This document shows positions 24,171 to 45,133 of a stretch of 64,000 nt of DNA, piece by piece. The notes below the pieces were generated by a model. The model was not told the DNA's origin, did no database searches, and was given only the letters and a program-made list of their open reading frames with translations. Source of the DNA: a virus; the IMG/VR virus record IMGVR_UViG_3300020190_000010, positions 32,001 to 96,000 of that record; one strand, given 5' to 3'. Both the position numbers and the translations under genes were made by a program. Positions within the stretch are counted from its first letter, which is position 1. Every line of letters starts with the position of its first letter.

Positions 24171-27100
24171 ATGTTAGAAAAGAAACGGTTACCCAGAAAA
24201 TACATAGATGTAAAAACTACCTTTACGGATAGTAATAATAAATCACCAAACATTCTTGATTTGAAATTTATACCCGATGTATTTACTGCCGGTAAAAATA
24301 TATTTAAGATAAAGCCAAATAAAAAAGTAGTTTCTTCAAAGTTTCCAATAGACATAGAAATTCTTGATAAGAATGGTAATCCAATATACCATGAAGTTTT
24401 AGAGTCAAGAGAAAAAACAGATCTAATAAATGTTTCAGTTTATGTTTATGAGACTGTTCCTGCAGGTGAATGCACAATAACTATTCTAGCAACTGTAACT
24501 GTTGATAGAACGGGAAGACCTTTAACTAAAAGCAATATAAAGAAGTATAATTACAAATACAACCACAAACTTTCTGTTGATCCAAAAAAACAAAATGAAA
24601 GCGAAATAATATATTCAAAAGTTCCAGAAGTTTCTATTAAGGAAAAAACATTTTCTGTAATAGAAGAAATAAATACGCCAACAAAATTGGATGTAAAATC
24701 TGGATATGCAAACTATGAGTTAAAAGAAGACGGAACACCAAGATTAACTGCTAGAACAGATTTATTCAATTCCGATTTTGTTAATGGTAAAATAACATTT
24801 GGATCTCTTGCAACAGGATATAGACCAACCGTTCAAACTTCATCATTTCAATATACATCAAGCGTTGATAAGGTAGTTGGACCAAGACAATTAAACTTAA
24901 AAGATGCAGTTTACATAACTGGATCAGATGGGATTTATAGAAAATTAAGTTCTGTTTCAAATCAACCGTATCAAATAGAGTATTACAAAAGTCCAACTAT
25001 TAGAAATATAACACAAAATGTAAAGACATATGCACAGATTGATATTTCTGGATTGGATCCTGAAGTTGGTAATTCATCTAGAATAAAAGTTTTTGCTAGA
25101 AGTGCCGTAAAACCAAATCAATCATATGAGTTAATATATGATGAAAGAGTATTACAAAATAATAGATTGGTAGATACTTCATCAAAATTTATAGATCATC
25201 CAATCGGTATATTTGCAAAAAATGTTACAGTAAAATCTGCTGGAACACAAGTAACATACCAATTAAATTCATCTGCAAGTTATTGGAAAGCGGTATCTGT
25301 AAACGGTGCTCCATCTGCAAATATAACAACTGGATCAGTTGCTAATGATGAAACCTTTGTTGGAATATCAACTGTTGTTGCATCACCTTTAACTGGAATA
25401 CAAGAAATTTTTGTTGAACAAACTTCAAGTGCCGCTACTGAATTTTATGATGATTCTGTTTACAACTTAAAATTCGATTATACCATAAGACCTAGTAAAT
25501 CAGATTCCAGAACTCCAAAATTTAGAGTATATGTAACAGGAAGTGCTTTTGCAAATAATTCTGAATACGGTAGATTGGTTGCAGATATTCCAATTGGTAG
25601 AATATTTGATAATAAAGTAAATAAAGATTACACCGTAAAACTACCTGTTGTAAAAAATGGAACTGGTATAGTTCGTTTTCTTGTAAATGATGGCATAAGA
25701 TTATCGAATATAAGAATACAAGAGGATGTTGATTTTGGTTTTACTCCAAATAGAACAACCATATATGCACCATTGAAACAGGATCATAGAAATGAATATC
25801 TTGATTTTAAGATACAATTTTTTAATGATAGTCTAAAAGAATCAAATGTTTCTGCATCATTTACTAATGCATTTTTTGTTGGTGGAAATAGTTACATATA
25901 CGGTGGAACTAATATAATAACTGGATCTACATTTATTTCTCCATATACTTCAAGTGGTGTTCAATTGTATGCAAACATACAAGCCGGAACATCAGGATCA
26001 GCAATTCAGTCTTATGGTTATAGTGGGGTAAACAATGCAATTCAAAATCCTTCAACTCCTTCTCATTTTGGATGGGGATTAACTCAAGGCAATCCTCATA
26101 GTCAAAGTGTAAATACCTTCTCCGAAACAAATATAAATATGATAAATGAATGTGGATCTATTTTTGATTTTAGAGCAACACCTTCAAATTTTATATTTAC
26201 AATGATTGGTAGTTCTTCATTTCTTGTAGGTAGTAGTGGATCATACAATCCAACATTTGGCACTGCAGGTGCGGCTGGAACATCTGGATGTGATCCAATA
26301 TGTGATGAATCATACATAAAGTGGGATGGGTGTGAAGTAACAATATACAATGCAAATGTAATATCAAGTTCTTTTGTAGGAACATCCGGTATTGGTGGAA
26401 CTGGAACATCAGGAACTTCTGGCACCGATGGATTAAATGGGACATCCGGAACATCTGGAACTTCAGGAAATAATGGTTCATCCGGAACATCTGGATTAGA
26501 TGGGACATTTTTTGGTTCATCTGGTTCATCTGGAACCTCAGGTTCATCAGGAAGTTCTGGCACATCAGGTTCATCAGGAACTTCTGGCACATCAGGTTCA
26601 ACAGGAACATCTGGATTAGATGGGACATTTTTTGGTTCATCCGGAACATCAGGAACTTCTGGCACATCAGGTTCATCAGGAACATCAGGAAGTTCTGGTT
26701 CATCTGGTTCAAGTGGAACTTCTGGCACATCAGGTTCAACAGGAACATCTGGATTAGATGGGACATTTTTTGGTTCATCTGGTTCATCTGGAACCTCAGG
26801 TTCATCAGGAAGTTCTGGTTCATCTGGTTCAAGTGGAACTTCTGGCACATCAGGTTCATCAGGAACTTCTGGATTAGATGGGACATTTTTTGGTTCATCC
26901 GGAACATCAGGAACTTCTGGATTAGATGGGACATTTTTTGGTTCATCCGGAACATCTGGTTCATCCGGAACATCTGGTTCATCCGGAACATCTGGTTCAT
27001 CCGGAACATCTGGTTCATCCGGAACATCTGGTTCATCAGGTTCATTCGGAAGTTCTGGCACATCAGGTTCATCCGGAAGTTCTGGCACATCAGGTTCATC

Positions 27101-30100
27101 AGGAAGTTCTGGCATATCAGGTTCAAGTGGAACTTCTGGTTCATCAGGTTCATCAGGAAGTTCTGGCACATCAGGAAGTTCTGGCACATCAGGAAGTTCT
27201 GGCACATCAGGTTCATCAGGAACTTCTGGTTCAAGTGGAACATCTGGTTCATCAGGAACATCAGGTTCATCCGGAACATCAGGAAGTTCTGGCACATCAG
27301 GTTCATCAGGAAGTTCTGGTTCAAGTGGAACTTCTGGTTCATCAGGAACATCAGGAAGTTCTGGCACATCAGGAACATCAGGAAGTTCTGGCACATCAGG
27401 TTCATCAGGAAGTTCTGGTTCAAGTGGAACATCAGGTTCATCAGGAAGTTCTGGTTCAAGTGGAACATCAGGTTCATCAGGAACTTCTGGCACATCAGGA
27501 AGTTCTGGCACATCAGGTTCATCAGGAAGTTCTGGTTCAAGTGGAACATCAGGTTCATCAGGAAGTTCTGGCACATCAGGTTCATCCGGAAGTTCTGGCA
27601 CATCAGGTTCATCAGGAAGTTCTGGCACATCAGGTTCATCAGGAACTTCTGGTTCAAGTGGAACTTCTGGTTCATCTGGTTCATCTGGTTCAAGTGGAAC
27701 TTCTGGTTCATCAGGTTCATCAGGAAGTTCTGGCACATCAGGAAGTTCTGGCACATCAGGTTCATCAGGAAGTTCTGGTTCAAGTGGAACATCAGGTTCA
27801 TCAGGAACTTCTGGTTCAAGTGGAACTTCTGGTTCATCAGGTTCATCAGGAAGTTCTGGCACATCAGGAAGTTCTGGCACATCAGGAAGTTCTGGCACAT
27901 CAGGTTCATCAGGAACTTCTGGTTCAAGTGGAACATCTGGTTCATCAGGTTCATCAGGAACTTCTGGTTCAAGTGGAACATCAGGTTCATCAGGAACTTC
28001 TGGTTCAAGTGGAACTTCTGGTTCATCAGGTTCATCAGGAAGTTCTGGCACATCAGGAAGTTCTGGCACATCAGGAAGTTCTGGCACATCAGGAAGTTCT
28101 GGCACAACAGGTTCATCAGGTTCATCAGGTTCATCGGGAACTTCTGGTTCAAGTGGAACATCTGGTTCATCAGGTTCATCAGGAACTTCTGGTTCAAGTG
28201 GAACTTCTGGTTCATCAGGTTCATCAGGAAGTTCTGGCACATCAGGAAGTTCTGGCACATCAGGAAGTTCTGGCACATCAGGTTCATCAGGAACTTCTGG
28301 TTCAAGTGGAACATCTGGTTCATCAGGTTCATCAGGAACTTCTGGTTCAAGTGGAACATCAGGTTCATCAGGAACTTCTGGTTCATCAGGAACTTCTGGT
28401 TCATCAGGAACTTCTGGTTCAAGTGGAACTGCAGGAACAAGTGGCAGTCAAGGTAATATAGCCGGTATACAATACAGATTTGATAATTCATCAACAACTG
28501 GCACAGGATTGAATAGCGGTAAGTTTAGATTTAATTCAGCAACTCCATCATCAGTAACACAATTATACATACATAATTTTGATGTTAATACAGTTTCAAT
28601 GGAAACATTTATTGAAACATGGGATGATTCAAATTCAACTCAAAAGGGATATATCTTAATTAGAGGAAATGAAAATAGTGATACAACCGTAATAGTTTTT
28701 GAAGTGACATCATTGGATAATATAGGTGGTAATCCTTCTGCAACAGGACTTGAAATAAATGGAACTATTTTGAATGCTGGGACTGCAACTTTACCAAGTT
28801 CAAATGAACAATGTGCATTACAATTTAGTAGAACTGGAAATAGTGGGACATCTGGATCTTCAGGAACATCTGGTTCATCAGGAACTTCTGGTTCATCAGG
28901 TTCATCAGGAACTTCTGGCACATCTGGTTCATCAGGAACTTCTGGTTCATCAGGTTCATCAGGAACTTCTGGTACATCAGGTTCATCAGGAACAAGAGGA
29001 ACATCTGGTTCAAGTGGAACTTCTGGTTCATCTGGTTCATCAGGAAGTTCTGGCACATCAGGAAGTTCTGGCACATCAGGTTCATCAGGAAGTTCTGGTT
29101 CAAGTGGAACATCAGGTTCATCAGGAACTTCTGGTTCAAGTGGAACTTCTGGTTCATCAGGTTCATCAGGAAGTTCTGGCACATCAGGAAGTTCTGGCAC
29201 ATCAGGAAGTTCTGGAACATCCGGTAGTTCTGGAACAAGAGGAACATCAGGAAGTTCTGGAACAAGAGGAACATCTGGTGTTCAAGGGGATAAGGGTGGT
29301 TTGGAATATAATTTTAACACAACCACAAATACCATTCCTAGCTCAGGACAATTTAGACTAAACAGTGCAACAATATCAAACGGTTCAACCTATACTCTTT
29401 CAATAAATTCAACAAATGCTGATAGTGCATCAGTTGGTAGTTATTTGGCTACATGGGATGATTCCACTAGTTCAACAAAAGGATTTATCATAATTAGAAG
29501 TAATAGCAATGAAAGTTCACTTCTACTCATATTTAGTGTATCTACATTAAACATAAGTTCACCGTATTATCAATACACAGTAACTTCTATATCAGGAACA
29601 ACACTTCCATCAAATTCTGAAAAATGTGTAATTGAATTTTATAGAACAGGTGATATAGGGAATGCTGGTATAACTGATTTACAAGTTTATACAAATGGAT
29701 CCAACTATTGGTCAAAACCAACTGGTGTTAATAAAGTTGATATTATACTAATAGGCGGTGGCGGTGGCGGTGGATCAGGAGCATTATGTGGAACTTCTCC
29801 AGGCCGTAAATTATTTGGCGGAGGTGGCGGTGGTGGTGGAGCAATAACATTTGCTACTGTTAGGGCATCGGATTTAGCTGCAACTGTATCTTATCAAGTA
29901 GGAAGTGGAGGAAATGGTGCTGCTCCTGTAACTGCAGCTACTGCAACTGATGCTATTAATGGTAATAATGGTCAATCTGGCGGAAAATCTATATTTGGTA
30001 GATTTATTGCTCCTGGTGGTATAAACGGTTCTAGAGGAATAACTACTGATCAAGGAACATATGATTTTCCTTTTGCCGGACTAGGAGGCGGATCTCAAGT

Positions 30101-30728
30101 TAGAGATGTAAATAAATACAATGTATCAGATACACAAACCAATTGGGGGACCATGGGTGTTGATGTATACAGCGGTATTGCTATAGGTGGACTTGGATTT
30201 ATTCCAGGAATTGCTGGTGGGACGGGAAGAGTGATTGTATCAGCCAATCAAAACGAAACTCCAAATGATACAAACGCTAACTCTAGACATAATGCTCCGG
30301 TATATTTAATTGGTTGCACTGGCGGTGGAGGTGGCGGTGGTTCAACCGGTGAAACGGGTGAAAGAAATGTTGCAGGTGGAAATGGTGGTTCTATAATTGC
30401 ATCAAATCCAAATGGTACTATTAATAACAACATTGCATCGCCATTTTATGGATTGGATCAAGTTGGTTTATGGAAAGGTGGATTATCTACAACTACTGCA
30501 GCAACTGCTAGTGCAGGTGGAGCATATAGTGGTTCATTATTTGTAAAAATAGGTTTAGGTGGCGGCGGAGGATGGAAACGGAATAATTTAGACGGAGCAC
30601 AAGGGGGAGCCGGTGGCGATTTTGGCGGAGGTGGCGGTGGCGGTGGATCTGCAATAAGTGCAAATGGTCGTAAATCTGGTGCCGGTGGTAAAGGCGGTAG
30701 TGGTGTAGTTGTTGTTATTTCATATTAA
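24171..30728 (+). CDS. Giant tail fibre-like protein with Gly-X-Ser collagen-like shaft and glycine-rich C-terminal domain
   Basis: 2185 aa; GSS/GTS triplet arrays; a duplicated ~125-aa globular domain; C-terminal IILIGGGGGG...GAGGKGGSGVVVVISY. Confidence 0.8.
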   Translation: MLEKKRLPRKYIDVKTTFTDSNNKSPNILDLKFIPDVFTAGKNIFKIKPNKKVVSSKFPIDIEILDKNGNPIYHEVLESREKTDLINVSVYVYETVPAGECTITILATVTVDRTGRPLTKSNIKKYNYKYNHKLSVDPKKQNESEIIYSKVPEVSIKEKTFSVIEEINTPTKLDVKSGYANYELKEDGTPRLTARTDLFNSDFVNGKITFGSLATGYRPTVQTSSFQYTSSVDKVVGPRQLNLKDAVYITGSDGIYRKLSSVSNQPYQIEYYKSPTIRNITQNVKTYAQIDISGLDPEVGNSSRIKVFARSAVKPNQSYELIYDERVLQNNRLVDTSSKFIDHPIGIFAKNVTVKSAGTQVTYQLNSSASYWKAVSVNGAPSANITTGSVANDETFVGISTVVASPLTGIQEIFVEQTSSAATEFYDDSVYNLKFDYTIRPSKSDSRTPKFRVYVTGSAFANNSEYGRLVADIPIGRIFDNKVNKDYTVKLPVVKNGTGIVRFLVNDGIRLSNIRIQEDVDFGFTPNRTTIYAPLKQDHRNEYLDFKIQFFNDSLKESNVSASFTNAFFVGGNSYIYGGTNIITGSTFISPYTSSGVQLYANIQAGTSGSAIQSYGYSGVNNAIQNPSTPSHFGWGLTQGNPHSQSVNTFSETNINMINECGSIFDFRATPSNFIFTMIGSSSFLVGSSGSYNPTFGTAGAAGTSGCDPICDESYIKWDGCEVTIYNANVISSSFVGTSGIGGTGTSGTSGTDGLNGTSGTSGTSGNNGSSGTSGLDGTFFGSSGSSGTSGSSGSSGTSGSSGTSGTSGSTGTSGLDGTFFGSSGTSGTSGTSGSSGTSGSSGSSGSSGTSGTSGSTGTSGLDGTFFGSSGSSGTSGSSGSSGSSGSSGTSGTSGSSGTSGLDGTFFGSSGTSGTSGLDGTFFGSSGTSGSSGTSGSSGTSGSSGTSGSSGTSGSSGSFGSSGTSGSSGSSGTSGSSGSSGISGSSGTSGSSGSSGSSGTSGSSGTSGSSGTSGSSGTSGSSGTSGSSGTSGSSGTSGSSGTSGSSGSSGSSGTSGSSGTSGSSGTSGTSGSSGTSGSSGSSGSSGTSGSSGSSGSSGTSGSSGTSGTSGSSGTSGSSGSSGSSGTSGSSGSSGTSGSSGSSGTSGSSGSSGTSGSSGTSGSSGTSGSSGSSGSSGTSGSSGSSGSSGTSGSSGTSGSSGSSGSSGTSGSSGTSGSSGTSGSSGSSGSSGTSGSSGTSGSSGTSGSSGTSGSSGTSGSSGSSGTSGSSGTSGSSGTSGSSGTSGSSGSSGSSGTSGSSGTSGSSGTSGSSGTTGSSGSSGSSGTSGSSGTSGSSGSSGTSGSSGTSGSSGSSGSSGTSGSSGTSGSSGTSGSSGTSGSSGTSGSSGSSGTSGSSGTSGSSGTSGSSGTSGSSGTSGSSGTAGTSGSQGNIAGIQYRFDNSSTTGTGLNSGKFRFNSATPSSVTQLYIHNFDVNTVSMETFIETWDDSNSTQKGYILIRGNENSDTTVIVFEVTSLDNIGGNPSATGLEINGTILNAGTATLPSSNEQCALQFSRTGNSGTSGSSGTSGSSGTSGSSGSSGTSGTSGSSGTSGSSGSSGTSGTSGSSGTRGTSGSSGTSGSSGSSGSSGTSGSSGTSGSSGSSGSSGTSGSSGTSGSSGTSGSSGSSGSSGTSGSSGTSGSSGTSGSSGTRGTSGSSGTRGTSGVQGDKGGLEYNFNTTTNTIPSSGQFRLNSATISNGSTYTLSINSTNADSASVGSYLATWDDSTSSTKGFIIIRSNSNESSLLLIFSVSTLNISSPYYQYTVTSISGTTLPSNSEKCVIEFYRTGDIGNAGITDLQVYTNGSNYWSKPTGVNKVDIILIGGGGGGGSGALCGTSPGRKLFGGGGGGGGAITFATVRASDLAATVSYQVGSGGNGAAPVTAATATDAINGNNGQSGGKSIFGRFIAPGGINGSRGITTDQGTYDFPFAGLGGGSQVRDVNKYNVSDTQTNWGTMGVDVYSGIAIGGLGFIPGIAGGTGRVIVSANQNETPNDTNANSRHNAPVYLIGCTGGGGGGGSTGETGERNVAGGNGGSIIASNPNGTINNNIASPFYGLDQVGLWKGGLSTTTAATASAGGAYSGSLFVKIGLGGGGGWKRNNLDGAQGGAGGDFGGGGGGGGSAISANGRKSGAGGKGGSGVVVVISY
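26400..28450 (+). repeat. 9-bp-unit coding repeat (GSS/GTS triplets), array 1
   Basis: ggttcatca / ggaacatca / ggaacttct / ggaagttct / ggcacatca units over ~2 kb; assembled length may be unreliable. Confidence 0.95.
28840..29290 (+). repeat. GSS/GTS triplet array 2
   Basis: Same 9-bp units as array 1. Confidence 0.95.
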
Positions 30729-30739: not shown

Positions 30740-31315
30740 ATGGCACAATACGGTATACAAAATATATCAACATTAGATATTATCAATATAATAGAAACCG
30801 ATGATACCGGAAGTATTATACTTGAATCTGGATATCAATTGTATTCGGGATCACTATCAATGTGGTCAGAATCGTATGAAAACTATACAGAAACATATCC
30901 ATCATATACTGGATCATTTACGGGTTCATTTAATGATTACTCTGGATCTCTTGGGTGGTTAGACAATTTTGCATCTTCATCTAGAACCGGTTCATATACT
31001 GGATCATTTACGGGTTCATTAAATGGCACTGCTTCATATGCAGGAACATCATCGTATGTATCAAGTATAAAATCAGGAGTAATTTCAAGTGGTGAATGGA
31101 TAATTGACATGACAGGTTTTAATTATACCGCTTCTGTTGCATTTTCATCAAGTTACTCGACCATTGGATATTCTATTACATTAACACCTGAAACTGATGT
31201 TCGTTCATTTTCTATAACAAATAAGAGGATAGACGGGTTTAACATTGATAGTAATTCTGCAACACCAATGACCGATGATGTATATTGGATAGTGGTTCCA
31301 TATAATAATCCATAA
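30740..31315 (+). CDS. Tail fibre-associated protein with YTGSFTGS repeats
   Basis: 29-bp direct repeat (30902-30930 and 30992-31020) encoding SYTGSFTGS; beta-rich C-terminus. Confidence 0.6.
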   Translation: MAQYGIQNISTLDIINIIETDDTGSIILESGYQLYSGSLSMWSESYENYTETYPSYTGSFTGSFNDYSGSLGWLDNFASSSRTGSYTGSFTGSLNGTASYAGTSSYVSSIKSGVISSGEWIIDMTGFNYTASVAFSSSYSTIGYSITLTPETDVRSFSITNKRIDGFNIDSNSATPMTDDVYWIVVPYNNP

Positions 31316-36137: not shown

Positions 36138-37698
36138 AATTGGATTTATATTAACATACTTTCATAATTCAAGAGAAGGTTATGAATTATTGAAAAAAAA
36201 TGTAGAAATTATTAGCAGAGAAAATTATTACTTTGTAATAGCAAGTCATTCTCCTTTACCGGTTGAAATGCAAGAAATGTGTGATTTTTATTTTTATCAA
36301 CAAAAAAATGTAGTTGATGATAAAAGGTATTCACATGGAGTTGCAGAAAATAACTTAATACAAATTTCACTAAATCATTTGAAATCTAATGGAATAGAAT
36401 GGGCGTATAAGATATGTTATGACATAGAATTGAATGATGTTAGTAGGTTCAAGGATTGGATTAAAGAATACAAATATAAGTTTGTTTCATGTAATTGGGG
36501 AAATAACATATTATGTACAAATTCTTTCTTCACAAATGTTAATTTTGTTTTGAAAAACATAGACTTTTATGATTCAATAGATTCTATGTTTAGTGTAAAT
36601 AATGTTCTTGAAAATTGTTGGGAAAAAAATGTAATAGATAAAAATTTGTTACATGAAATATATTCTTTCAAAGACAAAGAAACTTTTTATGGTGATAACA
36701 AAATAGATATTCTTTTCTACAATTATTCTGATATATCGTTTACCTATTCTAAAGAAGAAAACAGATTTTACATATCAAACAATACGAAACATGAAACTAT
36801 AAACAAATTTCGTATATTTGACTATTACAGCGATACCGTAATTGATGTTCAAACCAATACGAATATAACTCCTGGATCTACATGGTGGTTTGTACCACCA
36901 CATTCTGGATATGTTCCAAATGCTAAAAACGGATATTATGTTGAAATTTATTTTCCAGATAGAGTGGTAAGAAAGAACACCGGAATAATAGATTTTGATT
37001 ACAAACACCCGTTACACAAAAAATTCTTAAAACATAAATTTGAAGACATAAAATACAACGAATTTTCAGATTTTTCCGAATATAATCTGTATGATGAATT
37101 TAACATTGAACCAAACGAAATAAAAACATATGTTGATATTGGTGCAAACTATGGTATGTCTAGTATACCATTTATTGCATCAAATTCAAAAGTTTACATG
37201 GTAGATGCGGATTCTACCAACATAAGAATACTTGAAAATTCATACGGAAAAGATAACAGGATAAAGATAATAAATAAGGCAATTCATTCTTATGATGGTA
37301 TTACATCTTTTTATGAAGATATTAACGGATCATGTATTTCAAGTATTTCTAATTCAAATGTATTTGGTTCATCGGATAATAGAATAGAAAAAAAAGTAGA
37401 ATGTATATCACCAAACAATTTGATTGAAAAGTATGTGGATGAATATGAAATAGATCTACTAAAAATAGATATAGAGGGTGCAGAGTATGAATTTTTCAAT
37501 AGTATAACAGATGACAATATCAAAAGGATAAAAAAGTTTGTAATAGAGTTTCATATGAATGAAAATTATCGTGTTATGAATATAATAAAAAAACTTGCAA
37601 AAAATGATTTTAGATTTAGACTTGCAAAATGGGAACGGAATAATGATGATGATTATATTGTATCACATACTTGGGGTATAATTTATGCTTGGAAGTAA
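36121..37698 (+). CDS. FkbM-family methyltransferase with unknown N-terminal domain
   Basis: VDIGANYG, IINKAI, IDLLKIDIEGAEY and IEFH motifs. Confidence 0.85.
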   Translation: MKKDTKIGFILTYFHNSREGYELLKKNVEIISRENYYFVIASHSPLPVEMQEMCDFYFYQQKNVVDDKRYSHGVAENNLIQISLNHLKSNGIEWAYKICYDIELNDVSRFKDWIKEYKYKFVSCNWGNNILCTNSFFTNVNFVLKNIDFYDSIDSMFSVNNVLENCWEKNVIDKNLLHEIYSFKDKETFYGDNKIDILFYNYSDISFTYSKEENRFYISNNTKHETINKFRIFDYYSDTVIDVQTNTNITPGSTWWFVPPHSGYVPNAKNGYYVEIYFPDRVVRKNTGIIDFDYKHPLHKKFLKHKFEDIKYNEFSDFSEYNLYDEFNIEPNEIKTYVDIGANYGMSSIPFIASNSKVYMVDADSTNIRILENSYGKDNRIKIINKAIHSYDGITSFYEDINGSCISSISNSNVFGSSDNRIEKKVECISPNNLIEKYVDEYEIDLLKIDIEGAEYEFFNSITDDNIKRIKKFVIEFHMNENYRVMNIIKKLAKNDFRFRLAKWERNNDDDYIVSHTWGIIYAWK

Positions 37699-38797
37699 AA
37701 TAAAATGTAAATTTGAAAATGGTTTATTAACTGTAAAAAATATATCAAACATAACATTAAACGATTGTTTGATAAATTTGAAAAATGTTTTTAACCACAA
37801 TGTTGTTTTTCAAATGACAACACTTCAACCAAATGTTGAACAAATTTTTACGGTATCTAATAATAATTTTAATTTGTATTGGATGGATGATGTTGTATAT
37901 TTGAACATCTATCAGAATCACAAATTGATATATCAGAAAAATATAAATGATAAATCAAAGTGCTATGTAATTTACTCAAATGAAAACTTTGAATCATTAG
38001 CCGAGCAATTGATACTTGGATTGGACTCATATTCAACATCGGATGTTATACATTATTCGATAAATTATGAATGTAAATTGGATTATCCAAACTTAAAAAA
38101 TATAAGTTATTATGTCGATGGTGATATAAAAGACGGTCAATATATGCAATTTATGAAACCAAAATTGTTTTTAGATTTGTTAAGCAGGGGATATAAAAAT
38201 GTTGTATTTCTTGATGCAGATATACAAGTTAGACCCAATATAGATGATATGTTTAGGTTTCTTCCAGAATTAGATGCAGGTCCCTTGTTACAAAAACATG
38301 CATGGGATTATACATTGGTTGGTGATCAATATATTCCAGGTCCTTTGTTACAAGAATACATGAAATTACCTACACAAAAATTTCCACAGGGTGTTACAAA
38401 TGTTATGGCATTTAACACTAATCACAAAAGTTTATTTGAAGAATGGGAATCTGTTTGTTTTTCAAACGGTATAGATGAAATAAGAAAAAAAGAATTTTTA
38501 CATGATGAATTGATATTAAATTGTTTATTGTGGAAACTTGGAATACCACCGAAAGAACATAATCTTTTTGTAAACACAGTAAATTTGAATTGTGTACATT
38601 TCTTTTACACACATGATATGGATAACGCCGAAACTGTTAATATGAATGATTACGGTTATGGGTGGGGACATCAATCCTTTATCCCATACGATAAAAATTT
38701 AATAAAAGGATTTCACGGTATAAAAGATTCCATTATTGCTTCAAATGTTAATGAATATGTTTTCATAAATGATTGTGTTAGAGGTAATTATGTATGA
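37685..38797 (+). CDS. GT-A fold nucleotide-sugar transferase
   Basis: FMKP...VVFLDADI (DxD), HDELILN and FHG motifs; within the glycosylation cluster. Confidence 0.65.
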   Translation: MLGSKIKCKFENGLLTVKNISNITLNDCLINLKNVFNHNVVFQMTTLQPNVEQIFTVSNNNFNLYWMDDVVYLNIYQNHKLIYQKNINDKSKCYVIYSNENFESLAEQLILGLDSYSTSDVIHYSINYECKLDYPNLKNISYYVDGDIKDGQYMQFMKPKLFLDLLSRGYKNVVFLDADIQVRPNIDDMFRFLPELDAGPLLQKHAWDYTLVGDQYIPGPLLQEYMKLPTQKFPQGVTNVMAFNTNHKSLFEEWESVCFSNGIDEIRKKEFLHDELILNCLLWKLGIPPKEHNLFVNTVNLNCVHFFYTHDMDNAETVNMNDYGYGWGHQSFIPYDKNLIKGFHGIKDSIIASNVNEYVFINDCVRGNYV

Positions 38798-39929
38798 CGA
38801 TATTAAGTTTAACAAAAATATAATAAGAAATGAAATTCAAATTATACATCATTTTGTTGATGGTGGATATGTAGAAATAAAATCACCGATTGAAAAAAAT
38901 TTTAGAGTTGAATTTTGGAACAAAAATAATAACTGTGATTACTCTACGGTATTATCTTCAAATTCTTGGGCAAAAACAAGCAAAAAGTATTTTGAAGAGT
39001 ATACTTGTAAAGTTTATGATGAAGAAAATAAAATTATTTTTAATAAAAAATATGATGCAAAAAATAAAAGAGTATTTATATCGCTTGATTCAAAGGCGTT
39101 GGGTGATACTTTGGCATGGTTTCCATATGTAGAGGAGTTTAGAAAAAAATGGGACTGTGAAGTGATTTGCTCTACATTTTGGAATAAACTTTTTGAAAAA
39201 AATTACCCAAACATCCAATTTGTTCAACCTGGATTAGTTGTTCATAATTTATACGCCATGTATAGAATTGGATGGTATTATGATGGTGATAAAGCAAATT
39301 ATGATTTTACACCAATAGATTATAGACATCAAAATTTACAATATACTGCATGTGCACAACTTGGTTTAGATTTCAAACAAATTCGTGCAAAATTAGATAT
39401 ACCTTCTGTTGAAAAATCAAATAAAGTTGCAATAGGTATACATGGAACTGCTCAAACAAAGTATTGGAATAATCCAACTGGATGGCAAGAATTAACGGAC
39501 TATTTAACAGAAAATAATCATCAAACCATAATAGTTTCAAAAGAAAATGATGGTTATATGGGAAACTATCATCCAAATGGCGCAATAAAATTGCCAGAGG
39601 GATCTATAGAAAATCTGATAAAAGAATTATTATCCTGTAAATTTTTTGTTGGAATTGGATCTGGATTAAGTTGGTTAGCATGGACATTGGGCATTCCTAC
39701 AATTTTAATATCAGGTTTTAGTAAACCGTATTCTGAATTTAGTGGTGATAATGTTTATAGAATATTTAATTCAAATGTTTGTAATGGGTGTTTTAATACT
39801 CACAAATTAGATCCAGGAGATTGGAATTGGTGTCCTGAACACAAAGGAACTGAAAGACAATTTGAATGTACAAAAACAATAACATTTGATATGGTAAAAC
39901 CACATATAGAAAAGTTATTGAAATCATAA
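38790..39929 (+). CDS. TibC/AAH-like (autotransporter strand-loop-strand) protein O-heptosyltransferase homologue
   Basis: ALGDTLAWFPYVEEF, FFVGIGSGLSWLAW, ILISGFS and the iron-finger-like CNGC...WCPEHKGTERQFECTK; GAGGT SD before ATG 38790. Confidence 0.8.
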   Translation: MYDDIKFNKNIIRNEIQIIHHFVDGGYVEIKSPIEKNFRVEFWNKNNNCDYSTVLSSNSWAKTSKKYFEEYTCKVYDEENKIIFNKKYDAKNKRVFISLDSKALGDTLAWFPYVEEFRKKWDCEVICSTFWNKLFEKNYPNIQFVQPGLVVHNLYAMYRIGWYYDGDKANYDFTPIDYRHQNLQYTACAQLGLDFKQIRAKLDIPSVEKSNKVAIGIHGTAQTKYWNNPTGWQELTDYLTENNHQTIIVSKENDGYMGNYHPNGAIKLPEGSIENLIKELLSCKFFVGIGSGLSWLAWTLGIPTILISGFSKPYSEFSGDNVYRIFNSNVCNGCFNTHKLDPGDWNWCPEHKGTERQFECTKTITFDMVKPHIEKLLKS

Positions 39930-39975: not shown

Positions 39976-41079
39976 TTGTCTAATTGGAAGAAAATAATAG
40001 TAAGTGGAAGTCAGGCACACCTATCATCAGTAACGGCATCAAATGGATCTATAATATCTGGTTCGCTTGGTGTAACAGGTTCCATAGATATAATTGGTAA
40101 TTTAATAATAAACGGAACAAGTTATATCGCAGCACCATCTGGAACAAGTGGAACATCAGGAACATCTGGTGCACCTGGTCCCATTGGTCCTCCTGGTGCT
40201 TCAGGTTCATCTGGTTCATCGGGAACACGTGGAACAAGCGGAACTTCTGGTGCTGCTGGTCATGCTGGTGCCACTGGTGCCACTGGTGCTTCAGGTTCAT
40301 CAGGAACTTCTGGTGCTACTGGTGCAACTGGTGCAACTGGTGCTTCAGGTTCATCAGGAACTTCTGGTGCTGCTGGTGCCACTGGTGCCACTGGTGCTTC
40401 AGGTTCATCAGGAACTTCTGGTGCTACTGGTGCAACTGGTGCAACTGGTGCTTCAGGTTCATCAGGAACTTCTGGTTCATCAGGAACATCTGGTGCCACT
40501 GGTGCTTCAGGTTCATCAGGAACTTCTGGTTCATCAGGAACATCTGGTGCTGCTGGTGCTTCAGGTTCATCAGGAACCTCAGGAACAGGATTCAATACGG
40601 TATCAAATCCTGCAGATAATAGAATACTTACATCCGATGGAACTACAAATGCAGCGGTAGCTGAAAGTAATCTAAATTTTGACGGAACGATATTTAACGT
40701 TACTGGTAGTGCATATATTTCTGCTACCGCTCGTTTAACCGATGTTGAAGAACGAGAAGTAACTGTTTTAATTGGTGGAACACCAACAAGTCTAACATTA
40801 GATTTAAGCACTGCAAATGTATTTGAAGTTAGTTGGAATAATAATGTAAATACATTTACAATTTCAAATCCACCACCAACAGATTATGCAGGAAGTTTTA
40901 CACTCGTTACAACTGGAACTGGAATACCTTATACTTGGCAATGGGGTTCTGCGGTAACTTGGTCTGGCGGTTCTGCTCCTGCGATAACAAGCACAAACGG
41001 TAAAAAAGATATTTACGGTTTTATTACTACAAATCAAGGAACTAATTGGTATGGTTTTATCGGTGCACAAAACGTGTAA
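39976..41079 (+). CDS. Collagen-like tail fibre protein
   Basis: N-terminal WKKIIVSGS; ~50 GAT/GAS/GTS triplets; C-terminal LDLS.ANVF...W.GG.AP...DIYGF...NWYG fibre-tip pattern. Confidence 0.75.
40141..40590 (+). repeat. Gly-X-Y coding repeat ([12 protein letters not shown])
   Basis: ggtgccact / ggtgcttca / ggttcatca / ggaacttct units. Confidence 0.9.
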
Positions 41080-41088: not shown

Positions 41089-43266
41089 ATGATAAAAAAT
41101 ATTATATTAAATGTTTCTAGATCATACAATCCCTACGTTTTTTCAAATGAAATATGGGCATGGGGACTCAATGATACAGGACAACTTGGACTGAATAATT
41201 TGACAAACCGTTCAAGTCCAGTGCAAGTTGGAACTCTTACCAATTGGAAAGATATTTCTGCAGGTAGTTCACATACAATGGCTATAAAAACAGATGGAAC
41301 AATGTGGAGTTGGGGTTCTAATAATGTTGGTCAATTAGGTATTGGAACCGTAGGAACTAAATCATCGCCCGTTCAAATTGGTTATGATACAAATTGGGTG
41401 TCTGGATCAGCAGGTGATGGTCATACTCTTGCCGTTAGAAATGATGGAACAATGTGGAGTTGGGGTTCAAATGGTGCAGGGCAACTTGGATTAAGTAATA
41501 CAACAAATAGAAGTAGCCCAGTTCAAATTGGAACTCTAACTAATTGGAAAGATGTTTCTGCAGGTCGTTCACATACAATGGCTATAAAAACAGATGGAAC
41601 GCTTTGGGGTTGGGGTTTTAATGTTTTTGGTCAATTGGGCGATGGAATCCAGACGAGTAAATCATCGCCCGTTCAAATTGGAACACGAACATGGACAACC
41701 GTTTCCGCCGGTGCAATTCATTCAGCCGCTATTCGTTCCGATGCCACTCTTTGGACATGGGGTAATAATGGAACTGGACAATTGGGCGATGTAACCGTAG
41801 TAAGTAAATCATCGCCCGTTCAAGTTGGAACTAGAACATGGACAGATGTTGCGGCGGGTCTTTCTATGACTATGGCAGTTAGGGGCGATGGAACTCTTTG
41901 GACATGGGGTAATAATGATAATGGTCAATTGGGATTGCTTAGAGACCGCAGTAGACCTAATTATGTAGATACTTATACTACTTTTACAAGTATTACTACC
42001 GGAGATGAAGCTTCACTTGCGATAGCATATGACGGAACTCTTTGGTCCTGGGGATCAAACTCAGGTGGTGTACTTGGTCATAATGATGGCATTTCACGTA
42101 GTAGTCCAACACAAATTGGAACTAGAATTTGGAATAATGTATCAAGGGGAGATCATCTACATACATTAGCAGTCCGTAATGATAATACGTTATGGTCATG
42201 GGGCGCGAATATTTTTGGTTCTTTAGGACAAAACGATGATATATGGAGATCTAGTCCAGTTCAAGTTGGAACTTTGAGTAATTGGTCACAAGTTTCTTCT
42301 GGATATTTACATTCTCATGCTGTTAAAACAAACGGTACACTTTGGGGTTGGGGGTACTTTGCTACCGGTGATGGTACAAGCAACAATAGATCCAGTCCAG
42401 TTCAAGTTGGAACTTTGAGTAATTGGTCTCAAGTTTCATCACTATTCGCAGAGGCATTTGCATTAAAGACGGATGGAACTCTATGGGCATGGGGAATAAA
42501 CTCATACGGAGCCCATGGCGATGGAACTACTACTTTTACGCTTTCTCCAGTGCAAATAGGAACTAGAACATGGTCATTTATTAGTGAAGGTGGTGGTGGT
42601 CTCCCATTAATGCAAACCTTTCATATGATTGCAGTTAGATCAGATGGAACTCTTTGGGCATGGGGACTCAATAATACAGGACAACTTGGACTGAATGATT
42701 TAGCAAACCGTAGTAGTCCAGTTCAAATAGGAACTGAAACAAATTGGGCATCCGGTGCAGTTGGTGGTAGTTCTACAATGGCAATAAAAACAAATGGAAC
42801 TCTATGGGCATGGGGAAGGAACGCAAACGCTATGCTTGGATTAGGTGACACTATAAATCGTAGTAGTCCTGTTCAAGTTGGCACTTTATCATCATGGGTT
42901 TCTGCCAGTATAGGTGAACAACATACAGTATTACTTCAAAATAATGGATACATATTAACTACTGGAGCTGCCAATCAATCCGGTGAACCTGGATTTGAAA
43001 CTAATAGGGCAATAAATCGTAGTTCTCCAGTTCAACTTGGTATCGATACAAATTGGCAAAGGGTAGAGGCAGCAATAAGTACAGGTGGACAATTCATTGC
43101 ACAAAAAACAGATGGAACACTTTGGTTATGGGGATCAAACACATCCGGTAATTTAGGTGACGGAACAGTTATTGCGAGGTCATCGCCAGTTCAAATTGGT
43201 AATGAAACAACTTGGGTTGATTTTAGTGCTAAGGGATTTCATTTTGTTGGTATAAAAAGATACTAA
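41089..43266 (+). CDS. RCC1/BLIP-II repeat beta-propeller protein
   Basis: About 14 repeats of DGTLWxWGxNxxGQLG...SSPVQ(V/I)G...W..VSAG..H. Confidence 0.92.
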   Translation: MIKNIILNVSRSYNPYVFSNEIWAWGLNDTGQLGLNNLTNRSSPVQVGTLTNWKDISAGSSHTMAIKTDGTMWSWGSNNVGQLGIGTVGTKSSPVQIGYDTNWVSGSAGDGHTLAVRNDGTMWSWGSNGAGQLGLSNTTNRSSPVQIGTLTNWKDVSAGRSHTMAIKTDGTLWGWGFNVFGQLGDGIQTSKSSPVQIGTRTWTTVSAGAIHSAAIRSDATLWTWGNNGTGQLGDVTVVSKSSPVQVGTRTWTDVAAGLSMTMAVRGDGTLWTWGNNDNGQLGLLRDRSRPNYVDTYTTFTSITTGDEASLAIAYDGTLWSWGSNSGGVLGHNDGISRSSPTQIGTRIWNNVSRGDHLHTLAVRNDNTLWSWGANIFGSLGQNDDIWRSSPVQVGTLSNWSQVSSGYLHSHAVKTNGTLWGWGYFATGDGTSNNRSSPVQVGTLSNWSQVSSLFAEAFALKTDGTLWAWGINSYGAHGDGTTTFTLSPVQIGTRTWSFISEGGGGLPLMQTFHMIAVRSDGTLWAWGLNNTGQLGLNDLANRSSPVQIGTETNWASGAVGGSSTMAIKTNGTLWAWGRNANAMLGLGDTINRSSPVQVGTLSSWVSASIGEQHTVLLQNNGYILTTGAANQSGEPGFETNRAINRSSPVQLGIDTNWQRVEAAISTGGQFIAQKTDGTLWLWGSNTSGNLGDGTVIARSSPVQIGNETTWVDFSAKGFHFVGIKRY

Positions 43267-43343: not shown

Positions 43344-44348
43344 ATGGAACAAAAAATTCATCCACTTGATGAAGCACTTTCCTATGCCATTAACGGTGCA
43401 CCCGAAAGAAGTGAGGAGATATTGAGAGACCAACCTCAAAATGACTATCGTGTTCTTTTTAATTTAGGATGGCACGAAATGCGTAAGGGTAATATGCAAA
43501 AAGCATTTGAACATTTCAATTATGGTCGTTTCATTGATGTCTTTGGTCTTCCTGCATTGCCAGGAAACATATGGAAAGATGAACCGCTTGAGGGCAAAAC
43601 ACTTCTTTTCCGTTGTGAAGGTGGTTATGGAGACCAAATTCTTAATTTTCGTTTTGCTAAGAGATTTGAGGAGATGGGTGCAAGAGTTTTGGTGTCTTGT
43701 GCACCAGAATTAAAGGCATTATTCTCTCGTCACGGTTTTATTTGTGTAGACAATGAAGTAATTATGTGTGCACACTATGATTATTGGGTTCCGGCTATGT
43801 CTGCCGCTTATGTTTTGGGTATGGAATACGAAGATTTAGACGGTTCACCGTTTATTTTTCCAACTGAACCAAGAAAATTGTTTTCAAAACCAAATCATCT
43901 TAAAGTTGGTATTCGTTGGAGTGGTTCTCCTGAATTTGAAGATGAACAACACCGAAGATTTCCACCAGAATTGATGATAAACCTACATGATATTCCAAAT
44001 ACAACACTCTATTCACTTCAGCGTGACGAAAATCTAGTTGATGGTCTTCCATTTGGTGATATGCGTGAACAAATGAAGTCTTGGGATGAAACTGCTAACA
44101 TTATTGCAGGTTGCGATGTTATCATTACATCATGCACGTCAATTGCACATCTTGCAGGTGCTATGGGTAAACCCACATGGATTGTTACGCCAATCATGCC
44201 TTACTATTCGTGGGTTGTTCCAGGTAATACTTCTCGTTGGTATGATACTGTTAGACTGTTCAGACAAGAAAAATATGGTGAATGGGAAGCTCCTTTCCAA
44301 AAAATACGTGAAGAACTTACAAAATTAGCAGAAGGATATGCAAAATAA
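43344..44348 (+). CDS. GT9-like (GT-B) glycosyltransferase with TPR-like N-terminus
   Basis: EGGYGDQILNFRF, KVGIRWSGSP, LYSLQ, DVIITSCTSIAHLAGAMGKPTW, WYDTVRLFRQ. Confidence 0.8.
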   Translation: MEQKIHPLDEALSYAINGAPERSEEILRDQPQNDYRVLFNLGWHEMRKGNMQKAFEHFNYGRFIDVFGLPALPGNIWKDEPLEGKTLLFRCEGGYGDQILNFRFAKRFEEMGARVLVSCAPELKALFSRHGFICVDNEVIMCAHYDYWVPAMSAAYVLGMEYEDLDGSPFIFPTEPRKLFSKPNHLKVGIRWSGSPEFEDEQHRRFPPELMINLHDIPNTTLYSLQRDENLVDGLPFGDMREQMKSWDETANIIAGCDVIITSCTSIAHLAGAMGKPTWIVTPIMPYYSWVVPGNTSRWYDTVRLFRQEKYGEWEAPFQKIREELTKLAEGYAK

Positions 44349-45133
44349 TGGATTCCAATAGATTGAGCATAGATATTGTTCTACGGACACATAGTTTCAT
44401 AGATATTCATGCTAATCCAACACCAAGATATTGTGGTGTTGATAAAACTACATTGGTTATTAAGTGTATTAAGTCATTGATTCAGTCTGCAGAACAATAT
44501 GATGGAAAGATTCACTTTGTTTGGTTTGATGACCATTCATCACAAAAATTGATCGATGGGTTACATGACATTTTCAAAACATCTAAACACACATATGAGT
44601 TTAACCCATTAGAATTGCGTGGATGGAATGCATCTGGACATGCACAATTTGATAGAGGTCGTTCATCTACTGCCGATTTAGTTTATTTTGTGGAAGATGA
44701 TTACCTACATTATCCGAATGCAATACTTGATATGGTGGACGCTTACATTCGTTTCAAAACGAATTTAGGAACAGAAGTTGCCATTCACCCATACGATGAT
44801 CCAGATAATTACTTACCAAAGTTTATTGATGAAACTCGCGTTGTTCTCGGTAGAGATAGACATTGGAGAACAAACAAGTATTCAACATTTACTTTTATGT
44901 GTAATCCTGAAATAGTCCGTAAGTTCTGGAGTAGATTTTATACTTGTGCAACTGAATACATGACAGAGTGGGGTGAGGCAAATGAAATACAAGAAGGAAC
45001 TACTATCAATCATATTTGGCGTTGGGAAGTGAAGTTATTTACACCAATACCGTCACTTGCTCTTCATATGGGTTATGAAAGACAATTAGATCCTTATATT
45101 GATTGGAAGAAATTGTGGAATTTAATTCAGTAA
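44348..45133 (+). CDS. GT-A (GT2-like) glycosyltransferase
   Basis: FVWFDDHSS and VYFVEDDYLH motifs. Confidence 0.7.
   Translation: MDSNRLSIDIVLRTHSFIDIHANPTPRYCGVDKTTLVIKCIKSLIQSAEQYDGKIHFVWFDDHSSQKLIDGLHDIFKTSKHTYEFNPLELRGWNASGHAQFDRGRSSTADLVYFVEDDYLHYPNAILDMVDAYIRFKTNLGTEVAIHPYDDPDNYLPKFIDETRVVLGRDRHWRTNKYSTFTFMCNPEIVRKFWSRFYTCATEYMTEWGEANEIQEGTTINHIWRWEVKLFTPIPSLALHMGYERQLDPYIDWKKLWNLIQ

Follow-up and report, generated by a model that had tools for sequence, protein, structure and literature searches.

A probable O-glycosylation system for the tail fibres of an uncultured tailed phage

An uncultured tailed phage probably sugar-coats its own tail fibres, as judged from its genes. The E. 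coli enzyme TibC sugar-coats adhesins. In the phage, a relative of TibC and further genes for sugar transfer are sited among the fibre genes, and fibre glycosylation is therefore probable. With somewhat better than even confidence we propose a phage-encoded protein O-glycosylation system which would act on the tail fibres of the phage itself. In other phages, too, the TibC-like enzyme is accompanied by GT4 domains and by genes for proline-free Gly-Ser/Thr collagen-like fibres. A literature search found no description of such a phage system of TibC-like enzyme and collagen-like fibre.

The gene cluster

The window, i.e., the 64,000 nucleotides analyzed (positions 32,001 to 96,000 of IMG/VR record IMGVR_UViG_3300020190_000010), corresponds to the late structural part of a myovirus-type phage genome, with baseplate, fibres, terminase, portal and head. 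Its fibre module combines a full-length TibC/Aah homologue with a GT4+GT25 protein, a GT6/8-like GT-A protein, an FkbM domain, a fibre chaperone and two further genes of weaker GT similarity. All genes of the cluster are on the plus strand, and the glycosyltransferase (GT) cluster lies inside the fibre module, the tail-fibre assembly chaperone marking the end of the cluster. The gene coordinates given in an earlier reading of the letters alone (the sequence-only reading) were confirmed. The features are:

24171-30728, plus strand: giant fibre protein, 2185 aa, candidate acceptor (G-X-Y count, Pfam)
30740-31315, plus strand: small Ser/Gly-rich protein of the fibre module, 191 aa (homologues in 2/81 TibC loci)
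31376-32920, plus strand: Ser-rich fibre protein, 514 aa, alternative acceptor (homologues in 20/81 TibC loci)
32944-34260, plus strand: Ser/Thr-rich fibre protein, 438 aa (homologues in 9/81 TibC loci)
34518-36137, plus strand: two-domain GT, GT4-type GT-B (about 1-315) and GT25-type (about 380-495) (Pfam)
36121-37698, plus strand: N-terminal domain, possibly GT-A, and C-terminal FkbM-family methyltransferase (Pfam, NCBIfam, model)
37685-38797, plus strand: β-sandwich and GT-A domain, GT6/GT8-like retaining type with DxD (predicted structure)
38769-39929, plus strand: homologue of TibC/Aah-family (BAHT) protein O-glycosyltransferases, proposed priming enzyme (TIGR04414)
39976-41079, plus strand: collagen-like fibre, 367 aa, candidate acceptor (Pfam Collagen, 78.9 bits)
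41089-43266, plus strand: RCC1-repeat β-propeller protein, 725 aa (Pfam RCC1-like domain, 511.5 bits; 11 RCC1 repeats)
43344-44348, plus strand: TPR and GT9-like protein, 334 aa, possibly a further GT-B transferase (weak Pfam, Atlas)
44348-45133, plus strand: weakly GT2-like (GT-A) protein, 261 aa (Pfam below cut-off)
45177-45638, plus strand: tail-fibre assembly chaperone (Pfam Phage_tail_APC, 64.2 bits, cut-off 26.6)
45631-46374, plus strand: adenylyl-/cytidylyltransferase-family protein, 247 aa (TIGR00125, 20.7 bits, below the cut-off of 27.7)

The TibC-like enzyme

The sequence-only reading had named a TibC/AAH-like enzyme and proposed a search with the respective family model, which bears the assignment out. 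The protein encoded at 38769-39929 matches TIGR04414 (hepto_Aah_TibC) with 285.5 bits at a cut-off of 200, across model positions 11-373/374, the N-terminal β-barrel region included. A six-frame search of the whole 137-kb record gives 285.2 bits and no second match, and 14 control genomes all stay below the cut-off. Compared with the TibC structure 4RAP the E value is 1.5e-60. The family is large (3702 proteins with an E value of 1e-20 or lower); in isolated phages it is seldom seen, with 4 of 50,697 records carrying the enzyme.

According to excerpts of the structural work on TibC (PMC4358343), the family consists of protein O-glycosyltransferases in which Asp-110 of TibC is the catalytic base, Thr-226 and Lys-230 are ligands of the β-phosphate and Trp-305 is a ligand of the heptose O4. 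Arg-286 contacts adenine N1 and thereby concerns ADP-sugar specificity; in the Ala mutant activity is lost or largely lost. Position 300, which affects stereoselectivity, is Pro in TibC and Ser in Aah and an E. coli plasmid homologue. The acceptor is a strand-loop-strand motif of a β-helix which is threaded through a dodecameric ring (same excerpts).

The phage enzyme retains the equivalents of Asp110, Thr226, Lys230, Trp305 and Cys339/342/358/370. In a census of the residues called essential for TibC in these excerpts, taken over 75 unique phage homologues, Asp110, Lys230 and Trp305 are each present in 75/75, and Thr226 is represented by 71 Thr and 4 Ser. The cysteines of the putative iron finger (339, 342, 358 and 370) are likewise each present in 75/75. 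Phe-368, a thumb contact, is kept in all 75; positions 265 and 266, Phe and Val in TibC, are mostly Tyr and Met (56/75 each), and at position 300 there are 44 Gly and 31 Ser. The equivalent of Arg-286 is Leu in the enzyme of the window. Among the 75 homologues this position is Arg in 4, Val in 21, Leu in 20, Thr in 14, Ile in 12 and Ala in 4, and the Arg is also absent from 6 of the 11 unique homologues which have an HldE-like kinase in their locus.

Partner enzymes

The GT4, GT25 and FkbM domains proposed from the sequence are all recovered by Pfam. The two-domain protein at 34518-36137 scores 58.8 bits for Glycos_transf_1 and 24.5 bits for Glyco_transf_25; since the latter cut-off is 24, the GT25 assignment passes by a small margin. 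Its GT4 part occurs in 66/81 TibC loci, mostly directly upstream of the TibC-like gene. The FkbM part of 36121-37698 (Pfam Methyltransf_21, 51 bits; TIGR01444, 68.1 bits) is present in 41/81 TibC loci.

Of the two GT-A domains originally claimed, the one at 37685-38797 stands. No Pfam family passes for this protein, and its model (pLDDT 88.9) displays a β-sandwich and a GT-A domain. Foldseek yields 470 matches in the PDB with an E value of 0.001 or lower, at the top WbbM, the blood-group transferases GTA/GTB and α-1,3-GalT, which together with UGGT have E values of 4e-8 to 4e-7. D177 and D179 of the DxD motif are invariant in 14 sequences. The modelled GT-A fold thus resembles GT6/GT8-type retaining transferases. 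The other proposed GT-A domain, the N-terminal half of 36121-37698, is unconfirmed (pLDDT 57.3; weak GT-A matches at E of about 1e-3).

For 43344-44348, said to be GT9-like, the evidence is weak: the Atlas neighbours are TPR/GT9 clusters (0.95-0.99), yet the Pfam GT9 match stays under the cut-off (E 0.034). Homologues exist in 5/81 TibC loci. The protein at 44348-45133 has two matches below cut-off (Glyco_tranf_2_2, E 0.0044; Glycos_transf_2, E 0.016) and homologues in 2/81 loci. The product of 45631-46374 shares 43% identity with the N-terminal portion of a 'cytidylyltransferase like protein' of Microcystis phage Mel-JY01 and 27-34% with proteins of loci L021, L028, L032 and L043 which pass Pfam CTP_transf_like. 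It may be a sugar-phosphate nucleotidyltransferase or, possibly, an unrelated enzyme (NMN adenylyltransferase-like).

Fusions, a cultured relative and the donor sugar

In relatives the partner enzymes are physically joined to the TibC-like domain. Fusions with a GT-A of the 37685-38797 type form ORFs of 770-783 aa in four loci (L004, L008, L026, L037), a GT4-TibC fusion of 732 aa is found in L014, and in L053 and L039 a methyltransferase (Methyltransf_23 or FkbM) is the fusion partner. In Mel-JY01, GT4 and TibC are the ends of a single protein of 1226 aa. These fusions argue that the enzymes work as one unit. Mel-JY01 is a cultured phage in which the genes are laid out likewise, a Gly-Thr/Ser-Ser fibre of 185 triplets among them; as the entire arrangement is present there, the question is directly testable.

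The genes after GT4-TibC in L014 encode, in this order, a cupin, a protein of 135 aa with rfaE_dom_II as best NCBIfam match (100.2 bits, E 8.8e-29), a kinase with rfaE_dom_I as best match (121.6 bits) and a fibre of 1592 aa with 276 triplets. An HldE-like kinase adjoins the enzyme in 14 loci from several lineages; all HldE-like matches in relatives are under the NCBIfam curated cut-offs. Such a split HldE-like kinase/adenylyltransferase pair beside the enzyme favours heptose as the sugar. In the window's own record (137 kb, 78% complete) no GmhA, rfaE domain II or PfkB kinase was found, and Arg-286 is replaced by Leu; both points count against the proposed system, and heptose is a candidate sugar in this phage.

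Fibre proteins and candidate acceptors

The giant fibre protein of 24171-30728 starts with a non-repeat part of about 700 aa, followed by two Gly-Ser/Thr-Ser collagen-like arrays with globular inserts between them and a Gly-rich C-terminal domain. Counted in runs of at least 6, it has 273 G-X-Y triplets in the assembled sequence, the longest run being 169. Ser and Thr account for 94% of X and Y (X 96%, Y 93%), and Pro is absent. The last 785 aa score 57.5 bits for Pfam Collagen (PF01391, cut-off 27.2) and 36.1 bits for Gly_rich_2. Homologues of the N-terminal part are found in 7/81 TibC loci and in Mel-JY01. The second collagen-like fibre, 39976-41079, is also above the Collagen cut-off; it has 49 triplets with 66% Ser/Thr (84% at Y), and Pro makes up 4%. 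Thus, the 'hundreds' of Gly-X-Ser/Thr triplets originally attributed to both genes apply to the first fibre alone. Repeat arrays of this kind go far beyond what chance would give. The second fibre gene is directly 3' of the TibC-like gene, the place which the substrate gene occupies after bacterial BAHT genes; in the bacterial references this downstream gene encodes an AIDA-repeat or YadA-like protein.

The Ser-rich protein of 31376-32920 is without collagen repeats. It is 52% identical to an annotated 'structural protein' of Mel-JY01, the gene of which is directly upstream of the GT4-TibC fusion of that phage. The initial 22 or so residues of 32944-34260 are similar to those of the fibre encoded at 39976. 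The small protein of 30740-31315 has no family in Pfam or PHROG. The β-propeller protein of 41089-43266, with homologues in 6/81 TibC loci, is probably a fibre-tip or receptor-binding part.

Co-occurrence of enzyme and fibre

The sequence-only reading predicted that the cluster and Ser/Thr-rich collagen-like fibres co-occur across related phages, and they do in both directions. Around the enzyme in 80 viral loci, a fibre ORF (at least 20 triplets, at least 60% Ser/Thr, at most 10 kb away) is present in 60/80 as a raw count; after clustering of the enzymes the figures are 31/43 clusters at 80% and 15/18 at 60% identity. Eleven fibre ORFs begin at most 106 bp from the enzyme gene. Conversely, among 78 viral records selected by similarity to the repeat array of the window only, 33 have TIGR04414 above cut-off. 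Sorted by CheckV completeness, the enzyme is found in 10/42 records below 20%, 10/21 at 20-49%, 13/15 at 50% or more and 6/6 at 90% or more. Near-duplicates are present among the loci of either test, and the two sets have two contigs in common. The 45 of 78 repeat-bearing records without a TibC-like gene (TIGR04414) are mostly small fragments. This two-way co-occurrence supports a link between enzyme and fibre.

Two observations count against a strict link to collagen. In one lineage (L021-24, L028, L032, L034, L043 and L044) GT4-GT25 and the TibC-like enzyme are beside a fibre of 2200-2450 aa without Gly-X-Y repeats, and in two repeat-fibre records, of 55% and 65% completeness, the recovered part contains no TibC-like gene. 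Overall, the O-glycosylation proposed from the sequence is partly supported: it gains from the family model, the co-occurrence, the fusions, the HldE-like pair and the siting in the fibre module; it is weakened by relatives without collagen repeats.

Alternative explanations

Phage fibres may be glycosylated with acceptors other than the collagen-like arrays, which would merely co-travel. The sugars would then be carried by non-collagen Ser-rich proteins (those of 31376-32920 and 32944-34260, together with the giant fibre outside its repeats), which may form β-structured fibres closer to the β-helix substrates of TibC. A collagen-like chain is indeed a kind of acceptor unlike the β-helix on which TibC works (excerpts of PMC4358343), and this counts against the reading we prefer. 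The lineage with repeat-less fibres keeps the enzymes, and a further locus, L005, has them together with fibres similar to 31376 (82% identity) and 32944 (56% identity) by tblastn, with no ORF reaching 8 triplets. The location of the Mel-JY01 homologue of 31376-32920 directly 5' of the fusion gene fits as well. We nevertheless regard this explanation as unlikely: homologues of 31376-32920 occur in only 20/81 TibC loci, as compared with 60/80 for Ser/Thr collagen-like ORFs; of the repeat-selected records of at least 50% completeness, 13 of 15 have the enzyme; and no more than 106 bp separate the enzyme gene from the start of the collagen-like ORF in 11 loci.

It is more improbable still that the enzymes target host surface proteins or LPS/glycolipids, e.g., for superinfection block or release, the siting in the fibre module being due to gene mobility. 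GT4, GT25, GT9-like and GT2-like families are best known for envelope glycan synthesis, the NCBIfam matches of the GT4 domain are glycolipid/LPS enzymes (all far below cut-off), PHROGs classifies GT4 homologues as 'moron, auxiliary metabolic gene and host takeover', and a donor-sugar pathway is absent from the record. However, TibC belongs to a family of protein O-glycosyltransferases (excerpts of PMC4358343), the genes share one orientation with those of fibres and fibre chaperone and are interleaved with them, and a tight tie to one unusual fibre type spanning several lineages would be unexpected. Phage glycosyltransferases often modify DNA, as an excerpted account states (PMC12619734), and base glycosylation could serve restriction evasion. 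We consider this highly improbable here: no gene of the thymidylate-synthase or dCMP-hydroxymethylase family was found in the 137-kb record, the genes are located in a late fibre module, and the TibC-like enzyme retains features of a protein O-glycosyltransferase.

Proposed mechanism

Glycosylation of the phage's own fibres would take place in the host cytoplasm late in infection, on newly made fibre chains. The TibC-like enzyme would attach the first sugar to Ser/Thr hydroxyls, most likely in the Gly-Ser/Thr-Ser arrays of 24171-30728 and 39976-41079. This sugar would most likely be heptose with ADP-heptose as donor, which would be taken from the host because the phage's 137-kb record is without HldE-like genes; some relatives may produce their own. 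GT4, GT25 and GT-A would lengthen the glycan and FkbM would O-methylate it. With the help of the chaperone the fibres would then be assembled into virions bearing a dense glycan coat, with candidate roles in stabilization of a Pro-free helix, protection and adsorption. Acceptor identity, sugar and order of steps are each what we infer from the genes.

A more far-reaching version is possible, if doubtful. Aquatic phages would have recruited a ring-forming autotransporter heptosyltransferase which threads proline-free Gly-Ser/Thr-Ser chains and processively heptosylates their Ser/Thr residues. The partner enzymes, often fused, would build a methylated oligosaccharide at each site, the dense glycan would replace hydroxyproline as helix stabilizer, and fibres hundreds of nanometres long would mediate adsorption, a widespread and undescribed virion modification.

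If the proposed system is real, virion protein O-glycosylation would be common in large aquatic phages, beyond mycobacteriophages, and a family of bacterial enzymes associated with virulence would turn out to have another, far larger natural role. It would account for stable fibres made from proline-free, nearly uncharged Gly-Ser/Thr-Ser arrays and would be relevant to host-finding, protease resistance and grazing resistance of phages. A simple repetitive acceptor tag with a compact enzyme set would further be of use in glyco-engineering.

Comparison with known systems

The closest known systems are the E. coli pairs TibC-TibA and Aah-AIDA-I (bacterial autotransporter heptosyltransferases, BAHT; 4RAP/4RB4). 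The phage enzyme shares with them full-length homology over a curated cut-off, the catalytic Asp, the β-phosphate Thr/Lys, the heptose-binding Trp, the four iron-finger Cys, and a gene position directly 5' of a long Ser-rich repetitive surface-fibre gene; the HldE-like pair of some relatives suggests that ADP-heptose may be shared, too. Unlike BAHT, it is phage-encoded within a tail-fibre module and lacks Arg-286, and the candidate substrate beside it is a collagen-like protein free of proline where BAHT have an autotransporter β-helix; position 300, Pro in TibC, is Gly or Ser among the phage homologues. No autotransporter gene is near the enzyme gene, the next gene being the collagen-like fibre; it is therefore a sequence homologue, not a functional 'autotransporter' heptosyltransferase. 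Further, GT4, GT-A and methyltransferase domains accompany the phage enzymes or are fused with them, which implies a longer glycan.

Glycosylated collagen-like surface proteins are BclA of Bacillus, the collagen of Mimivirus, which has its own hydroxylase/glucosyltransferase, and the cuticle collagen of Riftia; the animal GT25 enzymes are collagen galactosyltransferases. The phage fibres are alike in being surface proteins with collagen-like repeats, with O-linked sugars known there and predicted here, and a GT25-type domain is present. Enzymes and acceptor residues differ: here Ser/Thr occupy X and Y, and the arrays have no Lys/hydroxylysine.

In mycobacteriophage virions (Freeman et al. 2023), the subunits of capsid and tail tube carry glycans at their C-termini according to an excerpted account (PMC12619734). 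As there, phage glycosyltransferases lie beside structural genes and are proposed to decorate virion proteins; set against this excerpt, the candidate acceptors here would be collagen-like fibres and the key enzyme would be of the BAHT family.

Genome setting

The window covers bases 32001-96000 of a viral record that comprises 137,492 bases and is 78% complete by the CheckV estimate. The G+C content is ~30% in the window and 40-44% within the repeat arrays. All sizeable window genes lie on the + strand.

Genes assigned by PHROGs
615-2510, +, baseplate wedge protein
20990-24169, +, SbcD/SbcC-like nuclease
50041-51675, +, large terminase
51735-53600, +, portal
59356-60993, +, major head protein

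Judged by the baseplate, terminase, portal and head assignments, the fibre/glycosyltransferase cluster belongs to the late structural genes of a phage of myovirus type. Among named phages, Microcystis phage Mel-JY01 (PP395634.1; L002 and L164 among the related loci fetched for comparison, which carry L-numbers) is the most closely related. The gene order is common to both, and terminase and portal are 64% and 78% identical, respectively (tblastn). Searching a phage collection at the DNA level with the enzyme block returned nothing beyond short matches in 3 records. The nuclease gene is a single ORF of 1059 aa with an SbcD-like match at residues 16-346 and an SbcC-like match at residues 299-1058, which suggests a fusion of SbcCD, the palindrome-specific nuclease subunits.

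Collagen-like fibres

The giant fibre (ORF 24171-30728, 2185 aa) contains 273 Gly-X-Y triplets as assembled, counting only runs of at least 6. The X and Y positions of its arrays are 94% Ser/Thr, with zero proline. In a second fibre (ORF 39976-41079) 49 triplets were counted, and Ser/Thr make up 84% of their Y positions; both ORFs pass Pfam Collagen. The C-terminal end of the giant fibre (29500-30728) is a Gly-rich domain (Pfam Gly_rich_2, 36.1 bits) with a homologue in just 1 of 160 related loci (tblastn; L144, 57%).

Long open frames of up to 766 aa extend over the repeat array (26102-28276 and 26197-28497 on the - strand, 26926-28461 and 28774-29361 on the + strand). Most likely these overlapping and antisense frames are by-products of the repeats, not genes. 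They can misdirect gene callers, and the annotation of Mel-JY01 seems to be affected: its repeat region instead bears two annotated CDSs on the minus strand and a short one on the + strand. The Mel-JY01 giant fibre gene is apparently split across both ends of the linear record (L002:2-3049 and L164:47686-49998); an open frame of 771 aa continues past the record end, and a 1016-aa frame with 185 triplets begins at the first bases. In this fibre short Gly-Pro-Pro stretches adjoin the Ser/Thr arrays, and a prolyl 4-hydroxylase is annotated at L164:6570-7169; the same fibre might be both hydroxylated and glycosylated.

The N-terminal ~22 residues are closely alike in the fibre proteins starting at 32944 and 39976 (32944-33010 versus 39976-40042); they may form a shared site for anchoring to the baseplate or to a different fibre. 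Two Ser-rich fibre proteins weakly match the Pfam 'Chlorovirus glycoprotein repeat' below its cut-off (31376-32920, E 1.3e-4; 32944-34260, E 9.4e-3).

The glycosyltransferase cluster

Genes of the cluster and its downstream neighbours
34518-36137, +, GT4 and GT25 (Pfam; GT25 barely passes, 24.5 bits at a cut-off of 24)
36121-37698, +, uncharacterised N-terminal domain and FkbM methyltransferase (profile matches to the FkbM part)
37685-38797, +, beta-sandwich and GT-A domain (predicted model, pLDDT 88.9; no Pfam match)
38769-39929, +, TibC-like enzyme (TIGR04414)
41089-43266, +, RCC1 propeller (Pfam)
43344-44348, +, TPR protein, weakly GT9-like (weak profile match)
44348-45133, +, weakly GT2-like protein (weak profile matches)
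45177-45638, +, tail-fibre assembly chaperone (Pfam)
45631-46374, +, weakly adenylyl/cytidylyltransferase-family protein (weak family match)

Of 10 proteins from the cluster and the fibres submitted to PHROGs, 8 had no match. The model of 37685-38797 resembles WbbM, blood-group GTA/GTB and alpha-1,3-galactosyltransferase (E ~1e-7), and its DxD motif is invariant. The gene assignments of the sequence-only reading were borne out with one exception. A second GT-A, placed in the N-terminal half of 36121-37698, is unconfirmed: the predicted model is poor (pLDDT 57.3), and the weak GT-A matches were set aside.

The TibC-like enzyme

The search against TIGR04414, the family of the autotransporter heptosyltransferases TibC and Aah, had been named beforehand as a check on this enzyme. 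It yielded a clear match of 285.5 bits over nearly the whole model (curated cut-off 200), and the TibC structure 4RAP is matched with E 1.5e-60. Functional residues were drawn from the TibC structure paper (PMC4358343) and inspected in an alignment of 75 unique phage homologues and an E. coli plasmid homologue, numbered as TibC. Asp-110, according to that paper the catalytic residue, is present in 75/75 phage homologues, as are Lys-230, Trp-305 and the four iron-finger cysteines. At position 226, 71 homologues have Thr and 4 have Ser. Arg-286, described there as the adenine contact of TibC, is retained in just 4/75 and is Leu in the window enzyme. Position 300, reported in the same paper to determine heptose stereoselectivity, is Gly in 44 and Ser in 31. 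Both profile and structure matches and the retained functional residues thus indicate a genuine and probably active homologue of TibC.

The steadiest companion of the TibC-like gene is a GT4 domain, found in 66/81 loci and usually directly upstream; an FkbM domain is present in 41/81. Fusions join these parts. In Mel-JY01 a single 1226-aa protein is fused as GT4-...-TibC; L014 has a GT4-TibC fusion, L004, L008, L026 and L037 a GT-A-TibC fusion, and L053 and L039 a methyltransferase-TibC fusion. Metagenomic homologues number 3702; the 120 best of them add fusions with PF00534, PF05050, PF13578 and PF19662.

Co-occurrence of enzyme and fibres

Co-occurrence of the cluster with such fibres in related phages, proposed as a check by the sequence-only reading, was examined in both directions. 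In the forward direction a scan of viral contigs gave 127 relatives of the enzyme, of which 80 loci were retained; the count covered ORFs inside the 10-kb flanks that have 20 or more triplets and a Ser/Thr share of 60% or higher. Such an ORF accompanies the enzyme in 60/80 loci, a lower bound because many contigs stop within repeats. With enzymes clustered at 80% and 60% identity the counts are 31/43 and 15/18 clusters. For 11 fibre ORFs the start is at most 106 bp from the enzyme gene.

In the reverse direction 79 loci were picked solely by resemblance to the window's repeat array. The enzyme is inside the locus in 22/79, and in whole records the TIGR04414 cut-off is exceeded in 33/78. The rate climbs with completeness, from 10/42 (<20%) and 10/21 (20-49%) to 13/15 (at least 50%) and 6/6 (at least 90%). 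This set still includes near-duplicates, and 2 contigs are common to both sets. The proposed co-occurrence was found in both directions. Isolated phages, a collection different from that of the reverse test, encode the enzyme in only 4 of 50,697 records.

Counter-cases exist. In the lineage L021-24, L028, L032, L034, L043 and L044 the enzymes are beside a giant fibre that has no Gly-X-Y repeats; L005 likewise has enzymes and no such repeat fibre. Conversely, 2 fairly complete records have repeats, and the enzyme is absent from the sequenced part.

A single-protein query of bacterial and archaeal species-representative genomes returned 2 close relatives of the enzyme, L165 and L166. These short MAG contigs bear the labels Rickettsiaceae and Candidatus Muiribacterium, and their content is phage-like, namely a fusion enzyme plus a fibre ORF; in one of them an 872-aa ORF with 22 triplets is beside the enzyme. 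Probably both are viral contigs binned into bacterial MAGs.

The probable donor sugar

Downstream of the GT4-TibC gene of L014 come genes for a cupin, for a 135-aa protein and for a 249-aa kinase, and after these a convergent gene for a fibre of 1592 aa with 276 triplets. The top NCBIfam match of the 135-aa protein is rfaE_dom_II (heptose-1-phosphate adenylyltransferase, 100.2 bits), that of the kinase rfaE_dom_I (heptose-7-phosphate kinase, 121.6 bits), both below the curated cut-offs. The next-best single-function families score far lower (glycerol-3-phosphate cytidylyltransferase 60.4 bits, ribokinase 45.9 bits). Together the three genes (L014:11082-12584) would form a compact set for sugar activation; the ORFs tested included neither a GmhB-like phosphatase nor a SIS-type isomerase. 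An rfaE_dom_I-like kinase adjoins the enzyme in 14 loci from several lineages. The rfaE-like genes beside the enzyme in relatives favour an ADP-heptose-type donor for the family.

No rfaE domain II, GmhA or PfkB kinase was found in the window's own record; at 78% completeness, such absence is not proven. The window phage would either have to draw an ADP-heptose-type donor from its host or carry the genes for it in the 22% of the genome that the record lacks.

Interpretation and comparison with known systems

We consider it moderately probable that the phage glycosylates its own fibres with the TibC-like enzyme as primer. The sequence-only reading had proposed such a virion O-glycosylation system of Ser/Thr collagen-like fibres and a glycan-building cluster. 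That interpretation is partly supported: enzyme family, fibre co-occurrence and partner fusions speak for it; the L021-24 lineage and L005 speak against a strict link to collagen. We favour the collagen-like arrays as preferred acceptor and heptose as preferred sugar. In view of the fibre lineages lacking repeats, the repeats lacking the enzyme, and the known substrates of TibC, which are beta-helices according to PMC4358343, the acceptor role may extend to fibre proteins in general. That the glycosyltransferases act on phage DNA instead ranks low: no thymidylate synthase was found in the window's own record, an absence that carries the same reservation of completeness as that of the donor genes. 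A purely host-directed role is likewise ranked low compared with glycosylation of the fibres.

Glycosylation of phage virions is already known from mycobacteriophages, as stated in PMC12619734, which in its passages on the subject mentions neither collagen nor heptosyl. Nowhere in the open-access article texts covered by our search is a TibC-type phage enzyme together with collagen-like fibres described, nor was Mel-JY01 found there. As in the pairs TibC-TibA and Aah-AIDA-I, the enzyme gene is positioned ahead of a long Ser-rich repetitive surface-protein gene. Unlike these pairs, the window system has no autotransporter substrate, and Arg-286 is replaced in its enzyme. With both features missing, we treat the window enzyme as a phage variant of the TibC/Aah family, not as its equivalent.
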